A stretch of DNA of 64,000 nucleotides. Source: Bacteroidales bacterium. Lineage in GTDB: Bacteria > Bacteroidota > Bacteroidia > Bacteroidales > UBA3824. The position numbers were made by a program, and so were the translations under genes. A model generated the notes under the pieces. The model worked only from the letters and a program-made list of their open reading frames with translations. It was not told where the DNA came from and ran no database searches. Shown in pieces: positions 39,109-57,953 of this stretch. Where the stretch lies: the NCBI GenBank assembly GCA_017535325.1, contig JAFXUC010000080.1, positions 1,213 through 65,212 of the forward strand. Direction: 5' to 3'. Every line of letters begins with the position of its first letter. Within the stretch, counting starts at the first letter, position 1.

Positions 39109-39768
39109 TTAATTTGTTTCGTTTTTGTCTTTTGCCAACTCTTTTATTTCAAATCTTTTTTGGAAAATCAGCATAAGAGCCACGCCGACGGTTACGGCAG
39201 AGTCTGCAATGTTGAAAACAGGGGAGAAGAAGACGAAGTTTTTTCCGCCCCAAAACGGTACCCAGTCAGGCAAAACGGTGTCAATCATCGGAAAATACAG
39301 CATGTCAACTACTTTTCCCTGTAAAAAGGGAGCATAACCGCCGCCTGCGGGCATAAATTCAGCCACGGTGTTAGCGGCGTAACCTGTGGAAGAGAAAATC
39401 ACGCCGTAAAACATACAGTCAATCATGTTTCCGATTGCGCCCGCCAAAATCAGTGAGCCGCAGACTATTAATCCCGTTTTCGGCTGTTTGTATTTTATTA
39501 GCCAGCGGATTAGATAAATCATGCCGCCGATAGCGAGGATTCTGAAAACCGAAAGGAAAATTTTTCCCCATGCGCCGGGCAGTCCCCAACCGAAAGCCAT
39601 TCCGGGATTTTCCGTAAACGCCAACTGAAACCACTGCATCGGCCAGCCCCAGTGTTGATAACTGCTTTCGCCTATAAACATGTGGGTTTTTACCCAGATT
39701 TTTACGATTTGGTCAACAATGACAACCGCAAGTATGATAAAAACAGATTTTTTTGCTAATGAATTCAT
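39109..39768 (-). CDS. lspA: lipoprotein signal peptidase II
   Basis: VIVDQIVK, ENPGMAFGW, VFNIADSAVTVG. Start moved to MNSLAKK (39768), so it does not overlap the phosphatase gene. Confidence 0.85.
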   Translation of the reverse strand: MNSLAKKSVFIILAVVIVDQIVKIWVKTHMFIGESSYQHWGWPMQWFQLAFTENPGMAFGWGLPGAWGKIFLSVFRILAIGGMIYLIRWLIKYKQPKTGLIVCGSLILAGAIGNMIDCMFYGVIFSSTGYAANTVAEFMPAGGGYAPFLQGKVVDMLYFPMIDTVLPDWVPFWGGKNFVFFSPVFNIADSAVTVGVALMLIFQKRFEIKELAKDKNETN

Positions 39769-39803
39769 TTTTTCTAAATTTTGGGCAAAGTTAAAAAAAA
39801 ATT

Positions 39804-40946
39804 CTAAATTCTGTACCCTCCGATTAAAATATCGTCCATTTGCGCAAAACTTCCGCGCCACGAGGTTATAAATTCAAGCAGTTTTTCCTGTTGTTTTTCT
39901 GGCTCCTGCGTTTCGTTGTTGATTTCTATTAAAAGGTTTTTGAAACGGCCGTAACTTACTTTTTTGCCCGTCTCGCCGTTAAACTGGTCGGCAAAACCGT
40001 CAGAAAACATATAAATAAAGTCCCCGTCTTCCGCTTGAAATTCCTGAGTTTCAAACGGTTTCATTCTCGGATACAGTCCTATCGGATTTTTTACCGCCTT
40101 GTATTCCGTAAGTTCGCCTTTTCTGACAAGGTACATGGGATTGTTTGCGCCTGAAAATTTCAAGTGCTTGGTTTTTAAGTTCAAAATGCAAAACGACATA
40201 TCCATTCCGTCTTTGGGTTCAAGAGGGGAGGAGTTGTCCTGTTTTAGGGTCGTGATGATAAGTTCGCGCATGGTTTCGAGAATTTCCGACGGCATGGTCT
40301 CTTCGTTCAAATCCGTGCAGACCTCGTTTAAGAAAGTTACGCCGAGCATGCTCATAAACGCGCCCGGAACGCCGTGTCCCGTGCAGTCGGCAACCGTAAA
40401 GGCAAGCAGGTCGCCTTGACGCTTCATCCAGTAAAAGTCGCCCGAAACCGTCTCTTTCGGCAGCCAGAACAGAAAATAACCGCTCAGACCTTTTAAAACG
40501 TCTGTCTGAGGCAAAACAGCGTCCTGAATCCTTTTGGCATACGTTATTGAGTCGGTGATGTTGCGGTGCTTGTTTTCGATGTCGTTTTTTAGAAGTTGAA
40601 TGTGGTTTTTCTCCTTCTGAATCAAAAGCGACATTTCCCACAACTTTTTGTTTTTCAAGACGATTTCTTCTTTGTCCTGTTCAAGTTTTTTTTGCTCCAA
40701 AATAAAATTATCGGGCAATTTTTTTATGTCTCTCTGACTTTGTGCTGTCGGAGTTTGCGTTTCTTTTTTTTCTTGTAAAAGATAATTCAAACGGTCTATA
40801 TCTGATTCAAAATTTTTTATCTCGCTTTTGTATCTGTCTTTTATTTTTTCACTTGCGCGCGCAATTCTGCGGCTCATGGTAACTTGCATAATTACAACGA
40901 GTATGGCTAAAACTGCTGTCAAACATATAAATACAATTGTTAACAT
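39804..40946 (-). CDS. membrane-anchored coiled-coil SpoIIE/PP2C phosphatase
   Basis: N-terminal TM LTIVFICLTAVLAILVVIMQV, a coiled coil, then SGDFYWM...VADCTGHGVPGAFMSMLG...DGMDMSF...FSDGF...DDILIGG. Paralogous to the C-terminal half of 21990..23984. Start is ATG 40946 or TTG 40967. Confidence 0.85.
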   Translation of the reverse strand: MLTIVFICLTAVLAILVVIMQVTMSRRIARASEKIKDRYKSEIKNFESDIDRLNYLLQEKKETQTPTAQSQRDIKKLPDNFILEQKKLEQDKEEIVLKNKKLWEMSLLIQKEKNHIQLLKNDIENKHRNITDSITYAKRIQDAVLPQTDVLKGLSGYFLFWLPKETVSGDFYWMKRQGDLLAFTVADCTGHGVPGAFMSMLGVTFLNEVCTDLNEETMPSEILETMRELIITTLKQDNSSPLEPKDGMDMSFCILNLKTKHLKFSGANNPMYLVRKGELTEYKAVKNPIGLYPRMKPFETQEFQAEDGDFIYMFSDGFADQFNGETGKKVSYGRFKNLLIEINNETQEPEKQQEKLLEFITSWRGSFAQMDDILIGGYRI

Positions 40947-40979
40947 AATGATTATTTTTGTAAACAATAATTTTCTTCG

Positions 40980-43900
40980 TTAAAACTCCTCTCCTAAGAA
41001 TACTTTTAGTTTTTGATCGTTCAAAAACATGATACCGTCAGCACTTTTTACTTTCTGCATATATTTTTGAATGTCCATATAAAAATATCTCAGGGCATTG
41101 TCTGCGGTCAAAACATACAGAATATCATCTGAGGCATATCCCATGCAAACTACCGGTTGACGGTTCAATGAATGTTGCTCTATTACAAGACGTTTTGCGG
41201 CATCGTCTCTGGTGTTGATGATTGTTATACGGTTGTCAACTCCCGAAACTGCTAACAATCCGGAATGTATATTATAAACAACATTTTGTAAACCTGAATA
41301 ACTGCCTGCTATTTTTTCTGCTTGTGTATCGCTCTTAGTATCAACTACTTGGATTTCTCCGTTATCAAAACATATCGCAAGTTGACGTTTGTTCGGAATT
41401 GTAACCATATTGGTAGCCTTACTGCCTGATTGTGAGAACACTGTCTTCTGTGTGCCGTTTTTGATATTCCATTTTATTAAAGAACCTTTGTCAGTAAGTA
41501 TATACACTTCGGAATTATTCAATGCACAATTTACATCTGACAACTTTGTCTTTAAATTTATGCTCTTAATTACGTGAGAATCAGGGTCAGTATAGTTTAA
41601 GACTACAACTTTTCCCATTTCGTAGGCCAACACCAAAAGTTTTTTATCAGTTGAAACTGATGCTGCTTTTATGTAGTCGCCTTGTGAAGCCAACTTTACT
41701 TTTTCGCCGGTTTTGGTGTTAACGTAATACGTGTTTTTGTCGGAAGTGGAATAGACGAGATTTTCCGCGTCTGCAAAGCAAGCCTTTCTGACAGAAAATC
41801 TGCTGTCTTCGCCTTTGCTGATTTTTGTTTCTTTTGTTTTTTCTTTATCTAATTTGTAACCAATGATTTGTCCCTTCTCAGTTAAACAAATGATTTGATT
41901 GTCTTCATCGATGGCAAAACCCATTATTTTCTGAGAAGTGGTTTTCATTGGTTGCAAGAGATTGTTCTCTTCGAGGGCAAAAAGCACCGCATCGTAAAAT
42001 TCCGGCGTGTTTTCTGACTGATCGTTGAGGTTGTAGTAACTGTCAGCGGTCAAAATCAGGTTAAGGTTCATTTTTTTGTCCTTGTACTGGTTTTTGGCTT
42101 TCATGGCGAGCATGTTTGCCTTAGCCAAATTGTTGATTTCGTCCTTTTCGCGCTGAACTCGGTCGTTTTCTTCGATTTTGCCTTTCAACGAATCGCCCAA
42201 AGCATCGGAAATAAGTTTTTGTTCCAGCATTTTTTGATAGTTGGAATCCGCCCTGAGACGCTCCTCAACGGCAGTGCGGCGGTTTTTTTCTGCGATATAA
42301 CTTGCGTATTCGGCTTTTTTCTGCGCTTCAAGTGCTTGTAATGCCCTTAATTCAGCCGTGTCGCGTTGTTGAGAGGCAATTTCGTTGGCTCTTTCGGCGG
42401 CTTTTTGCTGTTCAACGGCGATTGCTTGCTGGTCTTGTGCGTATTTCTTTTGCTTTTCGGCTTCTACTTTTTGCTCCTCGGCGTTGTTTTTTTCCTGCAA
42501 CGCCCAATACGTAAAGCCTGACAAACTTGCGATAAAAATCAGCAAACCGTAAATTAGAAAATGTATTCTGCGTTTTGTTGCCTTTGCCTTTGTCTGAATA
42601 GCCACAAACGAGGATTCAAGAAAGTCAACGTAGTTTTCATAACGGAACTGCGCATTTTTTAACTTTTGTCTTGCAGGCAGTTTTGAACTGTCGTATTTAA
42701 CAAACAGATAAGGGTTTGGGTTACTTCTATTAAACCATTGGTTGAAGTAAGTGTAGTTTCCCGTATTTAACAGATACGACGGATTTTTCTCGCTTTTTAT
42801 CCAGAGTTGCATTTGAGAATTAAAGTCTTGATAATCCTTCATGTCTGCTGCTTCTTGTGTGTCCCATTCCGAAAGCATTTTCCAGTTTCTTATTAACGCT
42901 TCGTGCGTAACGTCCAAAACTGTATCGCCCGAAAGATATTGAGTTTCGGTTTTTTCGGGGTCAAGAAACGGCTTTATAAGCGAGTTGTCCGGAGTACGGA
43001 AAATGTTGATTACACCGCATACAGTGGCGTTTGTAACGTTTTCACGGTTGATAATTCCAGTGATTTCGCTCAACGTGCAACGGTTTCTTACCGGGCGGTT
43101 GTTGTCAACTTTTGTCAAAGATTTAAAAACGATTTCGATAATTTCTTTTGACTCGCCAACCGAAATGTTTTTTTCTGCCCAATCAGAATTTTCGATGAAA
43201 TAATCGTAAGCCGATTCGTACAAAATGCCCGCGTGAGCGTTCAAAACGTTGTTCAAATCGGTTTTTTCGTAGTATTTTTTCTGATATTCGGGCAGATTGT
43301 TGAACCAACGGTCAAATTCGCCTTTGTCGTCAGGACTTAAAACTTCACTTGAAATACCCGCTATTTTTGCTAAGTGAATCAAGTCCATAACATCTTCACC
43401 ATTGTTGGCAATCCTCCACAAAAGATTGAGTGCGTGCTGCAAAACAGGCAACTGGTCAAAACCCGAATTAAGGTTGTTGATGATAACCTCTGTTAAGCGT
43501 GAAGACACTTTTCCGCCCGCTAAAATAGCCGGCTCTTCTATAACTTGACGAATTTCGGTGCGTTTTAACTGCGGGACAAAAAACTGCGAATAAGCGATAT
43601 ATTCGGGCAGGTTTTTAAAGACTGTGCATTGCGAGATAAAGTCGCTTCGCATCGTAAAAATCACGTAAACAGGCAGTTTCTCCGTTATGGAAATTCTAAT
43701 TGTTTCCAAAAGTAAATTTATTGCTGTATACGATTCGTCAGAGGGACGGCCCTGATTGAAGTTTTCGATGTTTGTGAAAACTTCCTCAAATTGGTCAGCA
43801 ATGATTAAAAGGTTTTTGCCTGAATTAGAATCTTTTGTGTAGCATTTTGATGATTTATAGAGGTCTGTCAGTGCTGAAAAACCTTCTTTCAGTTGGTTCA

Positions 43901-44219
43901 TGCAGACGCTTTCATCGCAGTCTATTTGTTCAGCGAAAGCATTGGAAAGGCTTTCTAACGGATTTTTTTGCGGTTTGAAATCAGCGATTATCCAATTGTT
44001 GAATTGCGCTTTGAAAAAACCCACACGGATATAAGGAACGACACCGGCGTAAACCATACTTGATTTGCCGTCGCCGGAAGCACCGGTGATAAACGCCATT
44101 TTGTTTTCTTCTAACAGTTTGACGATTTGCCGTATGTGCAAATCTCGCCCTTTGAAGAAAATACTTTCCTCTTCTGTAAACGGTCTTAACCCCGGATATG
44201 GACAAACCCGCGCTGTCAT
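40980..44219 (-). CDS. STAND-type P-loop NTPase - TM helix - coiled coil - beta-propeller-like repeat protein
   Basis: CPYPGLRPFTEEESIFFKGRD, Walker A GASGDGKSS, Walker B LLIIADQFEEVF. Single TM FLIYGLLIFIASLSGFTYWAL (encoded around 42500..42565). Q/A/E/K-rich coiled coil. C-terminal ~350 aa made of ~40-aa beta-strand repeats. Confidence 0.8.
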   Translation of the reverse strand: MTARVCPYPGLRPFTEEESIFFKGRDLHIRQIVKLLEENKMAFITGASGDGKSSMVYAGVVPYIRVGFFKAQFNNWIIADFKPQKNPLESLSNAFAEQIDCDESVCMNQLKEGFSALTDLYKSSKCYTKDSNSGKNLLIIADQFEEVFTNIENFNQGRPSDESYTAINLLLETIRISITEKLPVYVIFTMRSDFISQCTVFKNLPEYIAYSQFFVPQLKRTEIRQVIEEPAILAGGKVSSRLTEVIINNLNSGFDQLPVLQHALNLLWRIANNGEDVMDLIHLAKIAGISSEVLSPDDKGEFDRWFNNLPEYQKKYYEKTDLNNVLNAHAGILYESAYDYFIENSDWAEKNISVGESKEIIEIVFKSLTKVDNNRPVRNRCTLSEITGIINRENVTNATVCGVINIFRTPDNSLIKPFLDPEKTETQYLSGDTVLDVTHEALIRNWKMLSEWDTQEAADMKDYQDFNSQMQLWIKSEKNPSYLLNTGNYTYFNQWFNRSNPNPYLFVKYDSSKLPARQKLKNAQFRYENYVDFLESSFVAIQTKAKATKRRIHFLIYGLLIFIASLSGFTYWALQEKNNAEEQKVEAEKQKKYAQDQQAIAVEQQKAAERANEIASQQRDTAELRALQALEAQKKAEYASYIAEKNRRTAVEERLRADSNYQKMLEQKLISDALGDSLKGKIEENDRVQREKDEINNLAKANMLAMKAKNQYKDKKMNLNLILTADSYYNLNDQSENTPEFYDAVLFALEENNLLQPMKTTSQKIMGFAIDEDNQIICLTEKGQIIGYKLDKEKTKETKISKGEDSRFSVRKACFADAENLVYSTSDKNTYYVNTKTGEKVKLASQGDYIKAASVSTDKKLLVLAYEMGKVVVLNYTDPDSHVIKSINLKTKLSDVNCALNNSEVYILTDKGSLIKWNIKNGTQKTVFSQSGSKATNMVTIPNKRQLAICFDNGEIQVVDTKSDTQAEKIAGSYSGLQNVVYNIHSGLLAVSGVDNRITIINTRDDAAKRLVIEQHSLNRQPVVCMGYASDDILYVLTADNALRYFYMDIQKYMQKVKSADGIMFLNDQKLKVFLGEEF

Positions 44220-49116: not shown

Positions 49117-50319
49117 ATGAAAAAACAATTAACCATTCTTTCCCTTTCCGCACTGACGTTGTTTTCGTGCGGGGGAAACAAGTCGCAAAATCAGAGTGTT
49201 GCAGAAAAAACCGATTCTGCTAAAACCGTAATGACAGAGCCGTCAAATAATACAGTGGAGGCTGCGGAAAAAACAGCGGAAGTCAGCGAAAACTTGGATT
49301 CTGTTCTTCAAAAAATTAATCCTTGGCTGAAAAAACTTCCTGAAAATCCCGACAGACAGTTCTATTTCTTTGAACATGAAGTCGATACCATTAAAGGACT
49401 TGCTTATTTCAAAGACTTTTTGTACGCCTACCCGTTTAAAACCGGCGGTTATCTGACTGTATCAGAACACAGCGAAATGTCAGAGGAAAATTATATTCCG
49501 ATGACACAGCGCGAAACTTATATTTACAAAGACGGAAAACTATCTTCTGCAAAAAACGTTTTGCCCGTACCTGACCCCGTCATGTTTACCAACGCAGAAA
49601 AAAGAACGGCACATAAAGCCGATTTCGATGCTATGTCCGCGCTTTACAAAAGACGTTCCAGCGATTATGTAAATTATATATTTTACAACGACAAACCTGA
49701 AATCCGTACTGTTCTCCGTCTTATCAACTACGATGATTCCGACTGGAAAAAAGAATATTCTGACCTGCTTGAAGGTAATGACAAGCCAAGTTACAGATGG
49801 GACGGCGAAAAGTTCGTGTTTTTTGACCCCTTTGAGGAATTTATGAAAAGCCTGCCTGAATCACCCGACAAAGCCGTTTATCAAAACAACAAAGTCGAAT
49901 ATATTATGGACGAGTTTTGCTCTGTCAGTGAGGACTGTTATGCCTTTCCGATAACCGGCGGCGGATACCTTGGCGTATTTAGTTACAACTGTCAGTGCGA
50001 GGCTTCAATGTCTTGGTATGACAGCACTTACGTTTACAAAGACGGTAAAATAAAGAGTGTTTCAAACGTTTTGCCCGTCCCTGAAATCTCAGCGTTGCTT
50101 GATGAAGAAAAGTGCAAGGGCAACGACGGTTTGGTCAGGGAAATTGTTGAACAATACAACAAATACCCGAAGGATTATCTTCTTTACTACATTTCTGACG
50201 ACGGCACACTGAGCGTCAGCGCGGAAGGCAACGGCTGCGAGCAGTGGGGCGAAAACCAGTTGGAATTAATGAAAAATGCCGTTTACAAATGGGACGGCGA
50301 AAAATTTATAAAACAATAA
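49117..50319 (+). CDS. lipoprotein, family member 2
   Basis: MKKQLTILSLSALTLFSCGGNK. Two internal domain copies, each with ...GGYL...Y(I/V)YKDGK(L/I)...NVLPVP... and ending in (Y/K)WDGEKF. Confidence 0.75.
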   Translation: MKKQLTILSLSALTLFSCGGNKSQNQSVAEKTDSAKTVMTEPSNNTVEAAEKTAEVSENLDSVLQKINPWLKKLPENPDRQFYFFEHEVDTIKGLAYFKDFLYAYPFKTGGYLTVSEHSEMSEENYIPMTQRETYIYKDGKLSSAKNVLPVPDPVMFTNAEKRTAHKADFDAMSALYKRRSSDYVNYIFYNDKPEIRTVLRLINYDDSDWKKEYSDLLEGNDKPSYRWDGEKFVFFDPFEEFMKSLPESPDKAVYQNNKVEYIMDEFCSVSEDCYAFPITGGGYLGVFSYNCQCEASMSWYDSTYVYKDGKIKSVSNVLPVPEISALLDEEKCKGNDGLVREIVEQYNKYPKDYLLYYISDDGTLSVSAEGNGCEQWGENQLELMKNAVYKWDGEKFIKQ

Positions 50320-50329
50320 CAATCACAAT

Positions 50330-51904
50330 ATGAAAAGAACAATTATACTTTCCCTTTCTGCATTGACGTTGTTTTCGTGCGGGGGAAATCAGCCGCAGCA
50401 AACGCAGTCTCAGCCGCAAAACACTGCTGAAACTGCCGCAGAAACTACCGGCGAAAAAACTTTCAAATACGTTGAGCCTCAGGATTCTGTTGTAAAAACA
50501 ATCTGGGAAAAACTCAAAAAAGAGGACAAACATATTTCAAACGTCATAACAGACGCTGTGAATTTTGACTATATTCCTCAGAGCGAGGCGGAAATTTTCA
50601 AGTCGAAAACCGCCATGGAATACGATTACCTTGTTCCGATGGGCAGCGAAGAGCCGGATAATTGCATTGCGGCAAACTACCGTATACAATGTTACCAAAC
50701 GCTTGACAATGCGTGGATTGCAATTATTGACGCTGTGGTTCACGGTTACGATTTGGATTCCGTCGACCATGCAGATAAGGTTTTTACGGTCAAGTTTAAG
50801 GACGGCAAAATTTCTTATCCCGACAACAAAGATTTTTTTCCCGAAAATTTTAAAACAGTAGAGGCTCATCACCGTGGCTTTTACAATCCGAGCATTATTT
50901 TCAGCAATACCGGTTTGAATTTCGTTCATTCGGAATACTGGCCGCTGAAATATCACTGGAACGGCAACAAGTTTGAGTCAGACTCAAAATTTATATGCAG
51001 TTCTGTTGACATGTACCGTGGAAATTTCTGCATGGAAGGCAAATGTGCAAACATAGGCGCTGAATGGACGGGAAGTCCTGACGGCGTTTTCAAGTCCGAT
51101 GACGGAAAACCTCTTGCAAAACTTGAATTAAAAGACGGAATCATAGAAGGTTATACGATTTTGGATTCGTCATGCGGTGTGGTTCAGGCTACCAATACCG
51201 ACAGTATTACTCACAATCCTGTTGCGCTTGGTTATCCTATAAAAAACGTTCTTGACTTTAAACGTGCTACTGCGTGGATGAAGGATACTGTCATAACCAA
51301 AGGTATGAAAGACGGCAAATACGTTATTACACAGCAACTTTGCCATGACACTCAGGACAAACGCCGCGATGTTTTTATAGAATTTGCCGCAAAGGACGAA
51401 AATTCCGAAATCGAAAGCATCAGGGTTTATTCAACGCCTTTGACGGTAACTCTTATGAGCGAGTTTGAGGCTGCAAAGTCTCTGTCAGATGAGGCGAGAA
51501 TGATTTTCAAAGCCTTGAATTTCAATGAGAAAGAATACGGAGTGTTTAAGCGTGCCAGTATTTATAACAAAAACGGTTTTAATATTGAGTTTGACAACGA
51601 TTTAGAAGTCCGTTTTCAGATTTATAAGGCTGACGGCGGCAGATTTTTGGTTGTTCTTTCAAAGAAAGAGGGGTATTTTAAAAGTCTTGGCGAAAAGTTC
51701 TGGTATTACGAGAACGGACAGTTTACTCCGGCAAAGATTGACATTCCCGCGCCGCATTATTACAAATCGGAAGACGAGTGTATGTATTATTTCACAGACG
51801 AGGGGCTTGAATGGGACAACGACGATGCCGACATGGAAAACCATTTTCATGAGGATTTTCCTTGGAACGGAAAAGAGTTTGAGTCTCAGGTAGGAGAAGG
51901 ATAA
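50330..51904 (+). CDS. lipoprotein, family member 3
   Basis: MKRTIILSLSALTLFSCGGNQ. HWNGNKFESD mid-protein and PWNGKEFESQ at the C-terminus. Confidence 0.75.
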   Translation: MKRTIILSLSALTLFSCGGNQPQQTQSQPQNTAETAAETTGEKTFKYVEPQDSVVKTIWEKLKKEDKHISNVITDAVNFDYIPQSEAEIFKSKTAMEYDYLVPMGSEEPDNCIAANYRIQCYQTLDNAWIAIIDAVVHGYDLDSVDHADKVFTVKFKDGKISYPDNKDFFPENFKTVEAHHRGFYNPSIIFSNTGLNFVHSEYWPLKYHWNGNKFESDSKFICSSVDMYRGNFCMEGKCANIGAEWTGSPDGVFKSDDGKPLAKLELKDGIIEGYTILDSSCGVVQATNTDSITHNPVALGYPIKNVLDFKRATAWMKDTVITKGMKDGKYVITQQLCHDTQDKRRDVFIEFAAKDENSEIESIRVYSTPLTVTLMSEFEAAKSLSDEARMIFKALNFNEKEYGVFKRASIYNKNGFNIEFDNDLEVRFQIYKADGGRFLVVLSKKEGYFKSLGEKFWYYENGQFTPAKIDIPAPHYYKSEDECMYYFTDEGLEWDNDDADMENHFHEDFPWNGKEFESQVGEG

Positions 51905-51926
51905 GAAGAACTGAACTAATCGAAAT

Positions 51927-52415
51927 ATGAAAAAGATAGCCATTTTTTCCCTTTTCGCATTGACGTTGTTTTCGTGCGGGGGAAACAGGACACAGGCACA
52001 AAGCGTTGAGGAAATCAACCAGACAATCAGCGGTCTTATAAAATACATTCCTGACCACAGAATTGACGAAAGCATAAAACCGCATTACACGGAAGAGTTT
52101 TTTACGCTTTTGCAAAAGGCTTGGAACGTGCCTTCGCCGGAGGACGGCATCGGCGATGAGGAGTTTTTGTATTATTTCATTGAAGGCAACGGCGACTGTT
52201 ATGCTTCAATCAACGGCACTGAGCACGAATGTAAGAATTTTAAAACGAAAATCGACGGCAATACGGCGGTTTCTACGTTTGACTACGTTCATGGTCCCGA
52301 AGAAACTGACAGTCATACCATAACACTCAAAAAAGTCGGAAACTCTTGGCTTATAGACGACTGGGACGACAACAAAAAAGCCGTTGCCGAATTTTTAAAG
52401 AGCAACGGCTTCTGA
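51927..52415 (+). CDS. lipoprotein, family member 4 (short)
   Basis: MKKIAIFSLFALTLFSCGGNR. Same 26-nt signal-peptide DNA core at 51960..51985. Confidence 0.7.
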   Translation: MKKIAIFSLFALTLFSCGGNRTQAQSVEEINQTISGLIKYIPDHRIDESIKPHYTEEFFTLLQKAWNVPSPEDGIGDEEFLYYFIEGNGDCYASINGTEHECKNFKTKIDGNTAVSTFDYVHGPEETDSHTITLKKVGNSWLIDDWDDNKKAVAEFLKSNGF

Positions 52416-52418
52416 TGC

Positions 52419-53330
52419 TTATTTTATTTTTGCAGAGGCTGCGCGTTCACCGATTTCAATCATGTCTTCGCAGTTTCCTTTGCCGAAACTCAGAGCGTCA
52501 TACTGTGTTAATACCGGGTGAATATAAATATCTGATTTCTGGACGTTTGAATCGTATTTTTCAGCATCGGGACGGGATTTGTAATATTCCGTTACAAGGT
52601 CGGTTGCTTCTCCGAAATATTGTTTGGCGAGGTCGGGCGTAACGGTAAGAGCCTCGATTAAGAACGAATATTTTTTCGGGAAAAACGATTCGCCTTCCTG
52701 ACGGAGGTCTACCACGACAGTAAATTCAGCACCCATGTCAAGAGCCACGTCAACGGGCAGATTGTTGTAGAAACCGCCGTCAACATAACGGTTGCCGTCT
52801 ATGATAACATTGTCGTATACGTAAGGAATTGCAGATGAGGCCATGATTGCGTCAAGCACGTCGCCTTCTGAAAGAACTACTTCTTTCAATTCTTTTGTGT
52901 CGGCGACAACGCATCTGAAAGGAATTTTTAAATCTTCAAAAGTTGTTACGCCTTTGTCCTGCAAAAGTTTGGAGAGAATTTCCCTGATTTTTGAACTGTT
53001 CTTTGCGTCGTTTTCATCGAGATTTACGAAAAATTCTTCCAACTCGTCGGCTTTGTAACCAGCCGCATACAACGCACCGAGCATAGAGCCGATACTTGTG
53101 CCTGAAATGTAATCGATTTTTATTCCGTGTTGTTCGATGATTTTCAGTGCGCCGATTTGAGCCGCGCCTTTTGCACCGCCGCCGCTGAGTACAAGTCCTA
53201 TTTTTTTGCCTGAAAAATCGGGCATTACATAATCGGGATCTTCATAATCGTGATCCATGTCATCTTCTTTGTCGCACGCCGCGGTCATAAGAATAAGCGG
53301 CAACAATAATAAGTAAAACAGTTTTTTCAT
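52419..53330 (-). CDS. patatin-like phospholipase lipoprotein
   Basis: Lipobox MTAAC. GLVLSGGGAKGAAQIG (oxyanion hole), GTSIGS (GxSxG), DGGFYNN (catalytic Asp). TAtaTTTG box on the reverse strand at 53364..53371. Confidence 0.85.
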   Translation of the reverse strand: MKKLFYLLLLPLILMTAACDKEDDMDHDYEDPDYVMPDFSGKKIGLVLSGGGAKGAAQIGALKIIEQHGIKIDYISGTSIGSMLGALYAAGYKADELEEFFVNLDENDAKNSSKIREILSKLLQDKGVTTFEDLKIPFRCVVADTKELKEVVLSEGDVLDAIMASSAIPYVYDNVIIDGNRYVDGGFYNNLPVDVALDMGAEFTVVVDLRQEGESFFPKKYSFLIEALTVTPDLAKQYFGEATDLVTEYYKSRPDAEKYDSNVQKSDIYIHPVLTQYDALSFGKGNCEDMIEIGERAASAKIK

Positions 53331-53461: not shown

Positions 53462-53614
53462 ATGACTACAACGATGAAATTGAGAGCGGAATTTACTGAC
53501 GAAAAAATAGAGAAAAATCTCCGTCAGGCGTTCGGAGAATTGAAAGATTACAAAGATGGAAAAATCGATTTTCAATCAGCGGAAGATTTTTTGAAGGAGT
53601 GGGAGGATAAATAA
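53462..53614 (+). CDS. 50-aa hypothetical protein
   Basis: MTTTMKLRAEFTDEKIEKNL...FQSAEDFLKEWEDK. The TAttTTTG box at 53430..53437 begins 32 nt upstream of the ATG. Confidence 0.4.
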   Translation: MTTTMKLRAEFTDEKIEKNLRQAFGELKDYKDGKIDFQSAEDFLKEWEDK

Positions 53615-53625
53615 TAGAAAAAAAC

Positions 53626-54318
53626 TTATAATTTCGTCAGCCTTTCTCTGTTGCTTATATTATCCAAAATGCAGTCTAATAATGCTTTAACATTGTATTC
53701 TTGCGAAGCGGAATAACATATTGGGCGGTGGATTTTTCTGTTGATGCTTATTTCAATTTGTTTTTGGAAAGAGTCAATTTGTCTGTTTAGAAAGTCATAT
53801 AAAACATTGTCAGGTTTGCCGTTAGTCCAATGTCGTCCGCTCATTGCAACATCTGCTTGGTTGATTGCAAAAATGATTCGGTTGTTATTAATATTGCTAA
53901 GGAGTGTTTGATTAAGCAACTTATATATACCCCCCAAGTCTCTGCGTGAGCCATCGATTACAACGAGCACCATATCAATTAGATAACAAGTGTTACATAC
54001 AGCATCATCTTTGTATACATCAACAATTTCATTTAAATAAGTTGCTAGTTTTTGTAAATGTTCTTTGTCTTTTTGCGGAGAATCGCCTATACCGGGCGTA
54101 TCCCACAAGCGGACATAATCATTTAGAAAATAAGAATTAAAGTCCTGAGTTTCTGGATTTACGCCGTGTCCTATTTTTGCGGTTTCGCTGCCGATAAGCG
54201 CGTCTATTGTTGACGATTTTCCTGCGCCTGTTACACCGACAAGCATAATATCAAGCGGGCGAACAGGTACTTTTGCCATAAATTCGTCCAACCGATAATT
54301 TGACAATTCATTACTCAT
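53626..54318 (-). CDS. IIGP/YfjP-like small GTPase, paralog B (soluble)
   Basis: G1 GVTGAGKSSTIDAL, G3 WDTPGIGDS, G4 NQAD. Start is ATG 54318 (MSNELSNY) or TTG 54345. Confidence 0.8.
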   Translation of the reverse strand: MSNELSNYRLDEFMAKVPVRPLDIMLVGVTGAGKSSTIDALIGSETAKIGHGVNPETQDFNSYFLNDYVRLWDTPGIGDSPQKDKEHLQKLATYLNEIVDVYKDDAVCNTCYLIDMVLVVIDGSRRDLGGIYKLLNQTLLSNINNNRIIFAINQADVAMSGRHWTNGKPDNVLYDFLNRQIDSFQKQIEISINRKIHRPICYSASQEYNVKALLDCILDNISNRERLTKL

Positions 54319-54345
54319 ATCTGTTCGTCCGCTTAATACGTTCAA

Positions 54346-55338
54346 TTACCAAAAAATGGATTTTAGCAATCCACAGACACCTCCAATTGCGCCACCCACA
54401 GCAGTACCAACACCCGGAATCACACTGCCTAATGCAGCACCAATAGCAGCACCAGTTGTTATATCTTCGATATAATCAGGAACCATTTTATTGTTGATTT
54501 CGATGTCGTAGTCCTTCTTACCGTCATCATACGTGTACCTGTCTTTTTTGTTCTTGTTTTTCTGCGATACAACCGCAAGTCGCTTGTTGTTCGGTATCAA
54601 ATCAACGATATAGTACAACAACTTGGAAATGTTGTACGATGGTTCTTGTGGCTTTCCTTCTTCCTTATATCCCGCTGCATACGAAAGCGTTTCAATAGAA
54701 AGTCCACAGCCCTCTTTGATTCGTTGCCTTACCGACCTTTCTTTTTCTGCGAGGAAAACTCCGAGTTCTGCATCTGGCTTGTGATTCACATCGTCCCAGT
54801 GCTTGCCTTTCATTGCCATATCCGCCTGATTGATGCCAACGAGAAGCCTTTTCTCCGGATTTTTGCCAAGATGAGGAACTATCACATCTGTTATCAGACC
54901 GTATGAAGTTCCCATATCGCGGCTTGAACCATCAAGAATTACAAGCACGACATCAATTAGCAAGTTGCCTTGTGCATCTTTTTCTTCTAACGTCTGAATG
55001 ATTCCTTTTTTATGTAGTTCATCCTTTTCAGGGCTGTCGCCAAGTCCCGGACTGTCCCAAATGACAAGGTTGCCCAAGTCATACTTGTCAATGTCCATAG
55101 TCATAGGGTCTGCCCCCGTACCAACAACAGCCTTTTCCATACCGAAAAGTGCGTTGATAGTTGAACTTTTGCCGCAACCGGTAGCACCCGTAACGAGAAT
55201 GTTCGCCTTTGCGTTTTTGCTTTCTTCAAGCCATTTAAGAATCTTCTCTTTTTGGCTCTCTGTCAAGCCTCGGAGATAATCCTTATCTCGCTGACTCAAT
55301 GATTTGTTCAGCGTTTCTAAGATACTTGTTACATCCAT
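54346..55338 (-). CDS. IIGP/YfjP-like small GTPase, paralog A, with a C-terminal glycine-zipper membrane helix
   Basis: G1 GATGCGKSSTINAL, G3 WDSPGLGDS, G4 NQAD. C-terminus ITTGAAIGAALGSVIPGVGTAVGGAIGGVCGLLKSIFW. Confidence 0.8.
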   Translation of the reverse strand: MDVTSILETLNKSLSQRDKDYLRGLTESQKEKILKWLEESKNAKANILVTGATGCGKSSTINALFGMEKAVVGTGADPMTMDIDKYDLGNLVIWDSPGLGDSPEKDELHKKGIIQTLEEKDAQGNLLIDVVLVILDGSSRDMGTSYGLITDVIVPHLGKNPEKRLLVGINQADMAMKGKHWDDVNHKPDAELGVFLAEKERSVRQRIKEGCGLSIETLSYAAGYKEEGKPQEPSYNISKLLYYIVDLIPNNKRLAVVSQKNKNKKDRYTYDDGKKDYDIEINNKMVPDYIEDITTGAAIGAALGSVIPGVGTAVGGAIGGVCGLLKSIFW

Positions 55339-55726
55339 ATTGTTGATGGATTTGATGGTGAAACAATGCAGAAAGAAAATTGTACGGACACAAAAAAAGC
55401 GTAGCCTTTTTTAAATGTGTCATACTATTAATGAGGTCGTGGAAAGTACCTTGGAATCAATATAACACAACAGACCACGCCCATATACGTAAGGCGCGGC
55501 AGTTGTGCGTAACCGATTCCTTTGAAATTTTCCACGTTTCATTAATGGTTACAGCACAATGCCTTTCAATATTACCTATGATGGATTGCAATCCGTTGCA
55601 AATATGTGAAGATTTTTTTATAAAAACAAATAGAAATTGAAGTTTTTTTAGAAAATATATCAATATATTTCTAAAATTCATATTACTTTATGCAATAAAC
55701 AATTAAGTTGTTATTCGTTAAAAAGT

Positions 55727-55777
55727 GTTATAATCTGCGGAATCTTGTTTTTTTTTGCAGATTCCGCAGATTATAAC
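55727..55777. repeat. perfect 19-bp inverted repeat (stem-loop), function unknown
   Basis: GTTATAATCTGCGGAATCT - 13-nt T-rich loop - AGATTCCGCAGATTATAAC. Confidence 0.9.
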
Positions 55778-55780
55778 AAC

Positions 55781-55818
55781 AAAAAAACCTTTCAGGTTCC
55801 GAACTGAAAGGTTTTTTT
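55781..55818. terminator. bidirectional terminator-like hairpin in a divergent intergenic region
   Basis: AAAAAAACCTTTCAG-gttccgaa-CTGAAAGGTTTTTTT. Confidence 0.6.
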
Positions 55819-56166
55819 TATTGAACTATCATTTTTTATCATTTAAACTTTTTCTTTTCTTATAAGCAATCCTCCTTTTTCTTTTTTAAAGGGTTAAACA
55901 ATCGGGTTAACTACTCTCTAAAACAAATATTTGTTTGTTATCGATAACGTTACAAAATTATAAAAAAATATTTAAACCACCAAATTATTTTGCACTTTTT
56001 TTCTACTTTTTTTGAAAAAAAATACCGTCAAATTTTATTGTTGCTTAATAATAGAAAAATGTAAAATATAAATAACTAAAAATTTTCTAAAAAATCAGAT
56101 TTGTTGATTTTTTTACATTTTTTCAAAAAAAATCCTTATCTTTCGCCAAAAATATTTTTTTTAATC

Positions 56167-57270
56167 ATGAAAAAGCAATTAACAATTCTTTCCCTTTCTG
56201 CATTGACGTTGTTTTCGTGCGGGGGAAATCAATCTCAGACACAGAATGTTGCGGTTAAAACCGCTGACACTACGGCAAAAGTTTCAACTCCTGAACCTGA
56301 AACTCAAACGCCCAAAAAAATCGAACTTTCAGAGTCCGTTATGAAAGAAATCTGGAAACAGTGGGATTTGGAATACAAAGACAACGCCGAACCCGAATTT
56401 TCTTTCAGTAGCGTAAAATTCAAGGATTGGAGCGTTGTTTGCGAGGGCGAACTCAGGGCTTATCCGCTTGACGAAACCTCTTTGAAAGTCTATTCCGTTT
56501 ACAATCAATATTCTTCTGATCCTAAGGACGATTCTGACGGTTTTTACAAAATCGATATTTACGTATTCAAAGAAGGCAAACTAACTGAGACGGATTATCA
56601 GCCTGATTTGACTGTTGAAAACGGCGTGCGTGCCGATTTTTCCGTAACCGGCGACACGCTTACGATTTTGAAAAACGACGACTCGAAACTCCAATTTGCA
56701 AGAGACGGTGAAAAATTCGTCAAGATTGAAATAAAACCCGGCATTGCCGAGGAGATTTTCAAAAAAGAGTTTCCGAAAATCAAGGAGATTTACAGCCGCA
56801 ATCCGCTTTTGGCATCGGGCAGCGAACCTGAGGAGAGTGAAGGCTGCGATTCCGGCGAAGAGTTGGCTTGTTATCCGCTCAAAAACGGCGGATACCTTGT
56901 GGTTTTTAAACACGATTTCAGCGGACCGGGCTGCGCTTCTGAATATTCTTTCTGGGCAAAGAAGTATAATGACGGCAAACTTTCAGCGGTAAAAGACGTT
57001 TTGCCGGTTCCCGCTTTGGAGGATTTGCTCGATCCCGGCAAGGCTGCCGATTATAAAAAAGACGTGGACGAGTTCAGAAAAATGTTTCAAGAGGCTCCTG
57101 AAAATTATTTGTGTTACGAGTTTCAGCCGCCTGAGAGCCTTACAGTAAGGCTTCACCCTTGGGAATGTGAGGAGGCGTATTTCAACATGGACAAAGTAAT
57201 GAAAGACCCTTACAACGGAGACAAAGTTCCCGAATACAAATGGGACTGCGAGAAATTCGTAAAAAAATAA
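56167..57270 (+). CDS. lipoprotein, family member 5
   Basis: MKKQLTILSLSALTLFSCGGNQ. Upstream TATCTTTCGCC at 56137..56147. ...GGYLVVF...YNDGKLSAVKDVLPVP... and C-terminal YKWDCEKFVKK. Confidence 0.75.
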   Translation: MKKQLTILSLSALTLFSCGGNQSQTQNVAVKTADTTAKVSTPEPETQTPKKIELSESVMKEIWKQWDLEYKDNAEPEFSFSSVKFKDWSVVCEGELRAYPLDETSLKVYSVYNQYSSDPKDDSDGFYKIDIYVFKEGKLTETDYQPDLTVENGVRADFSVTGDTLTILKNDDSKLQFARDGEKFVKIEIKPGIAEEIFKKEFPKIKEIYSRNPLLASGSEPEESEGCDSGEELACYPLKNGGYLVVFKHDFSGPGCASEYSFWAKKYNDGKLSAVKDVLPVPALEDLLDPGKAADYKKDVDEFRKMFQEAPENYLCYEFQPPESLTVRLHPWECEEAYFNMDKVMKDPYNGDKVPEYKWDCEKFVKK

Positions 57271-57389
57271 AAAATTTTGTAAATTTTAAAAAAGTCAGTA
57301 TCTTGCGGCGTTTTTTCCGCGGCGTTTTCGCGGAGAAAGAAGACAAGTAATTTTTTTATTAAACAACTATTTTTAACAAATAAATTTAA

Positions 57390-57953
57390 ATGAAAAGAAC
57401 ACTTATGACTATCGCTGCGGCAGCATCGCTTTTGCTTGCTTCATGCGGCGGTAACGGCGGCAACAATGCCAACGGCGGCAACAACGGTGCGGCAACTGAA
57501 ACAAAGGCAGCGGCAGAAGAATTTGTTTTGCCCGTTGATCCTTCCGCAAAACTTGACAAGACTTTTGACCACGAGAAATTTACAGTTCAGTATCCCTCAA
57601 CGCTTGAACCCCAGACTACGTTAGGCTCTGATTTGTCTTTTGCAACCCCCGACGGCTCTGTAAAAATCACCGGCACATACAACACTGAGGGTGTAGCGGT
57701 TGCTGATTTGGCATCTATGGCTGAAAACATGAAAGCGGCTGCCGGCGCAATGGGCGAGACTGCTGAAAATCCCATTGTTAAAGGCAAGGCTTACGTCATC
57801 AAAAGCAAAACCGAAGACAAAGTGATTTATCATTACTGCGTTATGAAAGAAGACAAAGTCGGCATCATGGGCGATTTTGAAATGGAAAACGAGGCTGTTG
57901 CTGAATACGAAAAATACGTCGGCGCAGTGCTCAGTTCAATTAAGTTCAAATAA
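57390..57953 (+). CDS. lipoprotein (divergent signal peptide, G/N-rich linker)
   Basis: MKRTLMTIAAAASLLLASCGGNGGNNANGGNNG. The mature part is unrelated to the family. Confidence 0.65.
   Translation: MKRTLMTIAAAASLLLASCGGNGGNNANGGNNGAATETKAAAEEFVLPVDPSAKLDKTFDHEKFTVQYPSTLEPQTTLGSDLSFATPDGSVKITGTYNTEGVAVADLASMAENMKAAAGAMGETAENPIVKGKAYVIKSKTEDKVIYHYCVMKEDKVGIMGDFEMENEAVAEYEKYVGAVLSSIKFK

Follow-up and report, generated by a model that had tools for sequence, protein, structure and literature searches.

A horizontally mobile pair of paralogous GTPases, one of them with a glycine-zipper tail, as a possible membrane-directed defence module

Why would a bacterium keep two small paralogous GTPases side by side and equip only one of them with a glycine-rich hydrophobic tail? 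The question is raised by two genes, here called A and B, in a stretch of 64,000 nt from a Bacteroidales bacterium (assembly GCA_017535325.1, contig JAFXUC010000080.1, positions 1,213 to 65,212), which as a whole is referred to as the window. Paired membrane-acting GTPases are central to animal cell-autonomous immunity (IRG, GIMAP, GBP, Mx), and dynamin-like GTPase pairs are central to one known bacterial anti-phage system, Eleos. The original prediction, made from the DNA letters, proposed for A and B a two-GTPase module with a membrane-active tail and a possible role in abortive-infection-like defence or membrane remodelling. We find that the two genes are paralogs with intact GTPase motifs, that the tail of A is conserved, and that the genes are adjacent or fused across many phyla in variable, often defence-type neighbourhoods. 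It is very probable that they constitute a self-contained, horizontally mobile module with one membrane partner. For the complete statement, in which this mobile cassette works by GTP-dependent heterodimerisation, acts on membranes and serves in defence, we regard the chances as evenly balanced.

Both open reading frames (ORFs) lie in tandem on the minus strand (Table 1), with a gap of 0 nt if B is read from its TTG codon and 27 nt if it is read from ATG; on metagenome contigs of the same species the gene callers chose the ATG form. The two products are 40% identical over 220 aa (BLASTP, E = 3e-44). Alignment of the A-family and B-family profiles with hhalign gave a probability of 100% and E = 9e-84, and thus the paralogy is far beyond chance. 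All G1, G3 and G4 motifs on which the original prediction was built could be located. In both families G1 (GxTGxGKS), G2 (PET), G3 (WDxPGxGD), G4 (NQAD) and G5 (YSA) are invariant. Therefore, B is not a degenerate pseudo-GTPase, and by their motifs both proteins look active as GTPases. Relative to A, B is missing an N-terminal helical segment of about 40 residues, a 9-residue insert after G5 and everything past residue 256, i.e. the linker and the tail. In AlphaFold2 (AF2) models the G domain was confidently predicted for A (predicted local distance difference test score (pLDDT) 79.7, predicted template modelling score (pTM) 0.82) as well as for B (pLDDT 86.3, pTM 0.87).

Two features of the G domains bear on how the proteins could work together. 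First, the G3 glycine is followed by Leu or Ile in A and B, at the position where Ras has its catalytic Gln (Gln61). A residue other than Gln at this position is typical of GTPases that require a partner or dimerisation for hydrolysis (HAS-GTPases and dimerisation-activated GTPases). Second, a DGSxRD loop after strand beta-4 holds an Arg that is invariant in both proteins (R140 in A, R126 in B). In the hhalign alignment to GIMAP7, for which the sequence was validated against PDB entry 3zjc, the arginine finger R103 falls two residues before R140 of A. This suggests that the invariant Arg may serve as a trans-acting finger.

As originally predicted, A alone has a basic linker (KNKNKKDRYTYDDGKKDYD) and a glycine-zipper tail (ITTGAAIGAALGSVIPGVGTAVGGAIGGVCGLLKSIFW, aa 293-330). 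The linker carries the family motif N-x-D/N-x2-M-W-x-S-D-D-x3-D-Y-x2-E-I. Its mean pLDDT in the AF2 model is 89 for aa 271-280 and 77 for aa 281-290, and the former value suggests that at least aa 271-280 would pack on the G domain. The last 38 residues form two predicted helices split by a proline/glycine (P/G) turn. Of 37 diverse homologues, 35-36 preserve their glycine register, G296/G300/G304-(P308)-G311/G315/G319/G323, which marks the tail as a conserved element rather than a chance low-complexity sequence. In 35 of the 37 homologues the tail also contains the protein's most hydrophobic 19-mer; the median best 19-mer Kyte-Doolittle score is 1.77, and Gly, Ala, Ile and Val make up 26%, 17%, 13% and 11% of the tail. 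The tail had been likened to pore-forming peptides, and a resemblance to glycine-zipper peptides indeed exists, with all matches below the cut-offs. The glycine-zipper families tested (PF13488, PF13436 and PF13441) and Bacteriocin_IIc (PF10439) matched with 16-18.7 bits against cut-offs of 25-29, none of them above the gathering threshold, and the Pfam match to the C-terminus of P22 gp7 was likewise weak and below its cut-off. The pore part of that likeness is conjecture, as is the idea in the original prediction that hetero-oligomerisation controls the tail; the AF2 confidence in the tail is low.

How widespread is this pair? A has more than 3,900 matches in a collection of 5.8 billion proteins, and the database names of its relatives, where there are any, are 'GTPase family protein', '50S ribosome-binding GTPase' or 'predicted GTPase'. 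For B, 489 matches were found in the protein collection, with very uniform lengths of 224-235 aa. Among 1.84 billion representatives at 50% identity, the A profile retrieved 343 clusters at E <= 1e-30 and 889 at E <= 1e-10. The A family is real but uncommon. A scan of GTDB with one genome per species returned at least 318 relatives, and the best 80 were surveyed for taxonomy. These belong to Bacteroidales, Treponema, many Clostridia, Negativicutes, Synergistota, Campylobacterota (Sulfurovum, Campylobacter), Fibrobacter, Desulfovibrio, and Gamma- and Betaproteobacteria. The surveyed loci cover at least 10 phylum- or class-level groups and their A proteins are about 45-60% identical to A throughout, a pattern which indicates horizontal transfer. 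Only 7 close matches were found in 72,556 plasmid records; one plasmid carrier is a 19.9-kb MOBQ plasmid, in which the pair is located beside a RelE toxin-antitoxin pair. A phage origin was considered and rejected: the A/B family has 0 matches in 50,697 phage genomes (INPHARED) and occurs in 1 contig among 2.9 million viral contigs (IMG/VR), and a fold search of BFVD matched only giant-virus AIG1 or dynamin folds.

The idea of a two-GTPase module was borne out by the gene arrangement. In 69 of 77 species-representative GTDB loci, in which the called ORFs were compared by BLAST with A and B, a paralogous GTPase gene directly neighbours the A-type gene in the same orientation, and three of the eight 'single' A loci end at contig edges. 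This pairing holds across the taxonomic groups listed above. The order is nearly always A then B, and the intergenic distances are mostly -35 to +30 nt, some of them uncertain since they were measured from longest-ORF starts. Further, in several sequence clusters B is fused with a following second A-type paralog (A'), and A-B-A' triples also exist, in which the third gene likewise has the hairpin. Such natural B-A' fusions are 'Rosetta stone' evidence of partners acting together and argue, at the level of sequence, for a physical cooperation of the two proteins.

The family is also variable in its parts. Some B proteins bear a glycine-zipper tail of their own or a zinc ribbon. Long A variants of about 440-455 aa (P0044, P0048, P0052 and L029:7938-9293) have an additional Cys-rich C-terminal domain with the consensus C[YF]ITTA-x-CE-x2-GKPD-x-CYEL-x2-FR-x-FRD-x-WL, an extension for which no Pfam match was found, and in a shorter A form of 360 aa (L045:11142-12224) the Cys-rich domain stands in place of the glycine zipper. 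The G domain of B is interrupted by about 280 aa in one Bacteroidales lineage (L001:8966-10522); this insert follows G3 and precedes strand beta-4, and again has no Pfam match. In another locus (L106:3495-8835) A is followed by a B-A' fusion and then by A'', so that the fusion sits between two further A genes. These genes are located directly downstream, on the same strand, of genes for a CDP-alcohol phosphatidyltransferase and a CDP-diglyceride synthetase.

Table 1. Positions of the GTPase genes, their motifs and associated features. Positions without a locus prefix refer to the window.
Feature	Position	Strand	Description
Gene A	54346-55338	minus	ATG start, 330 aa; IRG/GIMAP-like GTPase (ORF, Pfam, AF2, Foldseek)
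Gene A, domain layout			N-terminal helices aa 1-41; G domain ~aa 45-235; conserved linker; C-terminal glycine-zipper hairpin
A, G1 P-loop GATGCGKS	55165..55188	minus	aa 51-58; invariant in 37 homologues
A, G3/switch II WDSPGLGD	55036..55059	minus	aa 94-101; IRG-type WDxPGxG signature
A, SSRD loop after strand beta-4	54916..54927	minus	contains invariant R140; putative role
A, G4 NQAD	54820..54831	minus	aa 170-173
A, linker	54463..54570	minus	aa 257-292; family motif, here the basic variant KNKNKKDRYTYDDGKKDYDIEI
A, glycine-zipper helical hairpin	54349..54462	minus	aa 293-330; GxxxGxxxG, P/G turn, GxxxGxxxGxxxG, aromatic end
Gene B	53626-54318	minus	ATG start, 230 aa; paralog, G domain only, without membrane tail
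Gene B, alternative start	53626-54345	minus	TTG at 54345; 239 aa
B, G1 P-loop GVTGAGKS	54214..54237	minus	aa 28-35
B, G3 WDTPGIGD	54082..54105	minus	aa 72-79
B, G4 NQAD	53851..53862	minus	aa 153-156
Presumed promoter/leader of the A-B operon	55339..55723	minus	upstream bound: two hairpins at 55724-55818
Patatin-like phospholipase gene	52419-53330	minus	lipoprotein signal LMTAAC followed by DKEDD; TAtaTTTG Bacteroidetes-type promoter box ~40 nt upstream
Small ORF	53462-53614	plus	50 aa (MTTTMKLRAEFTDEKIEKNLRQAFGELKDYKDGKIDFQSAEDFLKEWEDK); convergent with B, ends 11 nt from the B stop codon
Viperin genes	L036:1921-2769, L038:4104-4925, L046:5894-6811	same strand as A-B	Synergistaceae, Selenomonadales and Fibrobacter genomes
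LRAT/NlpC-P60-family genes	L010:9831-10451, L043:7217-7879, L047, L050, L054, L071:9004-9744, L081:9013-9765

The neighbourhoods of the pair were compared by Pfam annotation of two genes upstream and two downstream in about 73 loci. No conserved third gene was found in this set; on each side, even the most frequent Pfam family is limited to at most 5 of 130 proteins. The synteny of the pair is variable, without a fixed arrangement, and the fixed housekeeping synteny that according to the original prediction would speak against a module of this kind was not observed. Recurrent neighbours are WYL/WCX regulators (about nine genes), Xre-type helix-turn-helix (HTH) proteins, integrases and resolvases, and also McrBC, type I restriction-modification subunits, Cas13d, Cas1/Cas2, CARF proteins, PDC-S01, PDC-S02 and PDC-M10. 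Such neighbours are typical of defence islands and mobile elements, and the WYL domain is present in some regulators of defence systems. In L008, the closest relative in GTDB, PDC-M10A and PDC-M10B are encoded upstream of the pair. On a conjugative plasmid of Vibrio alginolyticus, the pair separates hsdM-hsdS from PD-(D/E)XK-hsdR within a type I restriction-modification operon and directly follows a gene for an AbiEii toxin; in a Photobacterium toruni plasmid it is located between a radical-SAM/HD/AAA block and Csm6-Cas1-Cas2. The latter plasmid has a second, Eleos-like locus consisting of genes for a GTPase, a hypothetical protein and a dynamin-family protein (L100:13138-14774), about 4.5 kb from A-B on the far side of Csm6-Cas1-Cas2.

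In three phyla, genes for full-length prokaryotic viperins (E = 1e-68 to 1e-76) were found immediately upstream of A-B on the same strand. Two of these loci (L036 and L038) additionally encode, downstream, a large protein that includes a PD-T4-6-like Ser/Thr kinase domain, and the viperin, A-B and kinase genes may form a composite island that is transferred as one unit. Further viperins were suspected in the 440-aa genes that precede LRAT-A-B in Oscillospiraceae, wrongly, as these genes have no PADLOC match. An LRAT/NlpC-P60-family gene with an NCEHF motif is directly adjacent to the GTPase genes in 7 of the 77 loci, in the arrangements A-B-LRAT or LRAT-A-B or, in L071 and L081, in place of B and 11 nt after A. 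Judged from these arrangements, the LRAT-family gene hints at a swappable lipid- or cell-wall-directed effector, and the phospholipid-synthesis genes at L106 are, as a single case, a second hint of a phospholipid connection.

Based on these observations, we infer the following mechanism. A would be held at, or inserted into, the cytoplasmic membrane by its C-terminal glycine-zipper hairpin, and B would be its soluble paralog, a bare G domain. The two may associate via their G domains in a GTP-dependent manner and form a heterodimer or oligomer, like IRGs, GIMAPs, Toc34, septins and dynamin-like pairs; this proposal is based on the adjacency of the genes, the B-A' fusions, the hydrophobic residue at the Gln61 position and the Arg near the position of the GIMAP7 finger. 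B could then regulate GTP hydrolysis by A as an activator or gatekeeper, and hence the assembly state of A. Assembly of A on the membrane would gather the GxxxG hairpins, and the bilayer would be perturbed, permeabilised or remodelled. The purpose would most likely be defence against phages or other invading DNA, of an abortive-infection or membrane-guarding type. It is tempting to go further and to see in the pair an undescribed anti-phage system and the minimal prokaryotic counterpart of animal IRG/GIMAP pairs, possibly related to their ancestors, in which a soluble paralogous regulator would restrain or trigger an anchored effector GTPase, the latter would on infection undergo GTP-driven GxxxG zipping into an abortive membrane lesion, and LRAT-type lipid hydrolases could replace or supplement the second GTPase. 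We consider this extended version rather doubtful.

Several points weigh against the membrane-directed defence mechanism. For the membrane part, the pLDDT of the A tail is only 32-55, a low value which is expected for a membrane element modelled without a membrane. The tail helices are short (about 13-20 residues each), and the turn and the first helix are charged in many homologues (for example GADIGGAIGSVFGESGRRIGK). Because of this, a re-entrant, surface-bound or interfacial hairpin is at least as plausible as a bilayer-spanning pore. For the defence part, the association is partial and circumstantial: the often defence-flavoured, variable synteny supports the proposed role, but no recognised defence genes were found near the pair in this window, in a widespread Oscillospiraceae lineage and in Pseudoalteromonas. 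Several loci are located in conjugative or integrative elements near relaxase, DUF932 and ERF genes, and these contexts fit a mobile-element function as well as defence. PADLOC 2.0 has no model for the pair, and none of its models matches A or B over more than a part. The best matches are LeoBC and LeoA, over about 65-110 of 560-600 positions: in the LeoBC model (601 positions) A matches 26-135 and B 78-142, and in the LeoA model (559 positions) A matches 18-122 and B 55-119. Finally, a full-text literature search (YfjP-type GTPases, glycine-zipper GTPases, IRG/GIMAP-like anti-phage proteins, Eleos) found no description of this pair, and in a 2026 review of defence systems GTPases appear only via the Eleos-GIMAP link. 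Thus, the expectation that no characterised system has this architecture was upheld by PADLOC 2.0 and by the literature searched.

What else could the pair do? The alternative that survives best is protective membrane maintenance instead of suicide, in which A and B would act as a mini bacterial dynamin pair that seals or remodels a damaged or phage-perforated membrane, or sheds vesicles. Bacterial dynamin-like proteins are usually encoded as pairs or fused pairs, and in such pairs one partner binds lipid via a glycine-rich hydrophobic paddle, which the other may not do (PMC4159319). Membrane binding by DynA is reported to be needed for phage defence (PMC12998192). The A tail matches the LeoB paddle region (positions 412-477, PADLOC) and B matches the LeoA G domain, and lipid-acting neighbours recur, as described above for the seven LRAT loci and for the phospholipid-synthesis genes in L106. 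On the other hand, the force-transmitting neck and trunk bundles are absent from proteins of this size (560-730 aa would be usual), and the LeoA and LeoBC models are matched only over the small part given above. The patchy, horizontally transferred distribution is expected under defence too, and therefore does not separate maintenance from defence. We consider maintenance without suicide unlikely, with some evidence in its favour.

A further alternative is that the cassette serves the mobile element which carries it, in establishment, exclusion, addiction or anti-defence, like the uncharacterised GTPases YfjP, YkfA and YeeP. In a Phascolarctobacterium integrative element the gene order is relaxase, Xre-HTH, A, B and DUF932, with ERF and resolvase genes further on, and the A, B, DUF932 part parallels yfjP-yfjQ (DUF932) in CP4-57. 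Moreover, the pair is found on conjugative and mobilisable plasmids, including the MOBQ plasmid mentioned above, and homology is detectable to YfjP, whose C-terminal tail is hydrophobic. However, most loci, the window included, are without conjugation or integration genes within 7-8 kb, close plasmid matches are as few as reported above, and YfjP is unpaired and only 26% identical. Since defence systems are typical cargo of mobile elements, a mobile-element context does not discriminate between the two, and we regard service to the carrier as improbable.

Two alternatives can be dealt with briefly. The '50S ribosome-binding GTPase' label in the source annotation, together with MMR_HSR1 among the best Pfam matches and EngB/YsxC among the Foldseek matches, would point to housekeeping ribosome-assembly GTPases of the Era/EngB type, but the NCBIfam equivalog scores are far below their cut-offs (EngB 27.6 vs 164, YsxC 32.4 vs 124, Era 25.5 vs 237, Der 20.3 vs 307), KH or other RNA-binding domains are missing, and the family is rare, patchy and horizontally transferred, with a conserved membrane tail and variable synteny, so that distribution and architecture have effectively refuted this already very improbable explanation. 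Equally far-fetched is a role of A as the carrier or pro-form of a bacteriocin-like glycine-zipper peptide acting on other cells, with B as a processing or immunity factor: the weak tail matches to Bacteriocin_IIc (E = 0.0017, Pfam) and plantacyclin B21AG (E = 0.5, PDB) stand against their position under the curated cut-offs, the lack of a signal peptide, a double-glycine leader and a conserved export ABC transporter or protease nearby, the invariable fusion of the tail to an intact GTPase and the occurrence of the same architecture in diderm and monoderm phyla.

Within the window, plus-strand lipoprotein genes surround the pair and the patatin gene downstream of it, all of which are encoded on the minus strand. 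The description of the pair as part of an accessory block of opposite orientation to its neighbours is right in this respect and otherwise only partly apt. Paralogous lipoprotein genes and the gene of an apparently exported patatin lipoprotein flank the pair. Five lipoprotein genes, at 49117-52415 (+) and 56101-57953 (+), bracket the two GTPase genes; they have nearly the same signal peptide and lipobox (LSLSALTLFSCGGN...), match no Pfam family and seem to stem from a paralogous expansion specific to this lineage. For the ORF at 56101, an internal MKKQLTIL is the probable start. Patatin was considered as a third component of the system and is an unlikely one, because of its lipoprotein signal and charged export motif, its own promoter box, the 295-nt spacer holding the convergent small ORF, and the lack of a patatin partner in 77 other loci. 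Its product is probably exported and separate from the pair. The small ORF is annotated as a gene in every contig of the same species, without a match to any family.

For the A-B operon itself, no promoter was confidently identified between A and the upstream hairpins by a sigma-70 scan, which is uninformative for a Bacteroidales genome. The two hairpins (AAAAAAACCTTTCAG...CTGAAAGGTTTTTTT and ATAATCTGCGGAATCT...AGATTCCGCAGATTAT) lie back to back within the divergent intergenic region that precedes A. This is an odd position for terminators, and they could be an insertion remnant or a regulatory element. All same-species contigs keep the arrangement of the pair seen in the window; no empty site was found among them, since every contig with the patatin gene also has the pair. 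Related Bacteroidales, with a B that is 84% identical and, in one of them, an A of about 61% identity, have the pair elsewhere in the genome, with Sod/MFS or TPR/Rce1-like genes on one side and an AAA-ATPase_like/PDDEXK_9 gene followed by BacA on the other. The only conflict-type gene of the window is located 10 kb from the pair and encodes a 1,079-aa nSTAND1 NTPase with a C-terminal WD40 propeller (40980-44219, minus). Downstream of it on the same strand are genes for a SpoIIE/PP2C phosphatase (39804-40967) and signal peptidase II (39109-39861), and this STAND-plus-phosphatase arrangement (39109-44219) looks like a conflict or signalling system.

The identification of this pair is important for several reasons. 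The cassette reduces the idea of paired GTPases to two small proteins, a G domain with a 38-residue hairpin and a bare G domain. If the defence role is true, it would add a GTPase-based family which the PADLOC 2.0 models miss except for the partial LeoA/LeoBC matches, it would offer a tractable model of 560 residues for the control of a membrane effector by nucleotide-dependent heterodimerisation, and it would strengthen the case for bacterial roots of IRG- and GIMAP-type immunity. Even if the role is a different one, the name '50S ribosome-binding GTPase' is wrong for several hundred to a few thousand proteins, which are part of a mobile, membrane-directed two-gene module.

How do A and B compare with known GTPases? 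They are in the septin/AIG1/Toc34/IRG/dynamin neighbourhood of the TRAFAC GTPases, closest to IRG, and differ in architecture from what defines each named family compared. Pfam IIGP, MMR_HSR1 and AIG1 are above or at threshold only over G1-G3. For IIGP (PF05049), A scores 34.6 and B 31.2 bits against a cut-off of 24, over profile positions 23-111 of 375 only; for AIG1 (PF04548), the scores are 27.5 and 27.7 bits against 27, over positions 2-82 of 212 only. PDB sequence and profile searches are led by Irgb10, Irga6, GM4951 and Irgb6 (E = 5e-9), followed by a Campylobacter jejuni dynamin-like protein, HydF, septins and GIMAPs. With Foldseek, the model of A retrieves IRGs first (template modelling (TM) score 0.40-0.46, root-mean-square deviation 8-12 Å) and then EngB, Toc34 and Rag, and the model of B retrieves EngB, GIMAP2/7/5, Toc33/34 (TM up to 0.68), IRGs and LeoA.

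The IRG-like character of the G domain, which had been predicted, is supported. With IRGs the pair shares the best sequence, profile and fold matches, the G1 motif G(E/A)TG(S/C)GKSS-x-INAL, the G3 motif WDxPGxG and helices before the G domain, and in the alignment to Irgb10 the IRG signatures GxxGxGKSS-x-IN and WDLPGxG are found. IRGs act on membranes via GTP-dependent G-domain oligomerisation, and their GKS effectors are regulated by paralogous membrane-bound GMS members. However, the C-terminal helical domain of about 200 aa, which is part of the roughly 400 aa of an IRG, is missing from A and B: the IRG profile match stops at G3, and only about 70 aa of linker and tail follow the G domain of A. 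In addition, G4 is NQAD instead of TKxD, the genes are bacterial and operonic, and the membrane element of A is a glycine-zipper hairpin, whereas IRGs use a myristoyl group or an amphipathic alpha-K helix.

The logic of the pair, an anchored GTPase with a soluble paralog, is also that of GIMAP2 and GIMAP7. GIMAP2, with its double hydrophobic segment at the C-terminus, forms a scaffold in the GTP-bound state, and soluble GIMAP7 stimulates its GTP hydrolysis (PMC8201404). The fold of B matches GIMAP2, GIMAP7 and GIMAP5, and the invariant Arg of A and B is near the position aligned with the GIMAP7 finger. In contrast, the GIMAP conserved box and the C-terminal helices folding back on the G domain are missing, and the hhalign match to GIMAP7 (probability 95%, 71-97 columns) extends from G1 to beta-4 only. 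The eukaryotic relatives of A and B work by nucleotide-dependent G-domain dimerisation.

Among bacterial systems, the link to E. coli YfjP, YeeP and YkfA suggested by the original prediction proved to be distant. YfjP is 25-26% identical to the pair over about 170 aa (171 aa) of the G domain only (pairwise E = 2e-10). The three are detectable homologues, which like the pair occur in integrative elements beside DUF932, and YfjP ends in a hydrophobic tail (...VVSVARAVWDFFF), a tail for which no discussion was found in the literature searched. YfjP differs in being a single gene, in having VDLPGVGES without the Trp and SQSD as G4, and in a tail without a glycine zipper; being itself uncharacterised, it explains nothing about the function of the pair. 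YfjP-like GTPases are also among the very few genes of small E. coli and Salmonella plasmids of 4.8-9.6 kb (plasmid hits H9-H14; L007:7711-8574). Glycine-zipper peptides (Gly-zipper_Omp, Gly-zipper_OmpA, YMGG, class IIc bacteriocins and P22 gp7) have in common with the tail the repeated GxxxG on two short hydrophobic helices. They are secreted or outer-membrane peptides, in contrast to the motif of A, which is the C-terminus of a cytoplasmic GTPase.

The dynamin-like pairs, i.e. Eleos, DynA, BDLP1/2, Campylobacter jejuni DLP1/2 and IniA-IniC, are likewise paired or fused paralogous GTPases, one of them with a glycine-rich paddle or anchor, for which hetero-dimerisation across the G domains has been proposed. 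Eleos (LeoA/LeoBC) is an anti-phage system made of paired dynamin-like proteins. Membership of A and B in Eleos/LeoABC was rejected, because only the stretch from the P-loop to switch II matches, and DLP_LeoA_gen of NCBIfam scores 24.6 bits against a cut-off of 325. A and B are without the neck and trunk (stalk) bundles and are two to three times smaller. In summary, paired, dimerisation-activated, membrane-acting GTPases are a known kind of system; new in A and B is an unusually minimal architecture, for which the functional hypothesis of a membrane-directed module is plausible.

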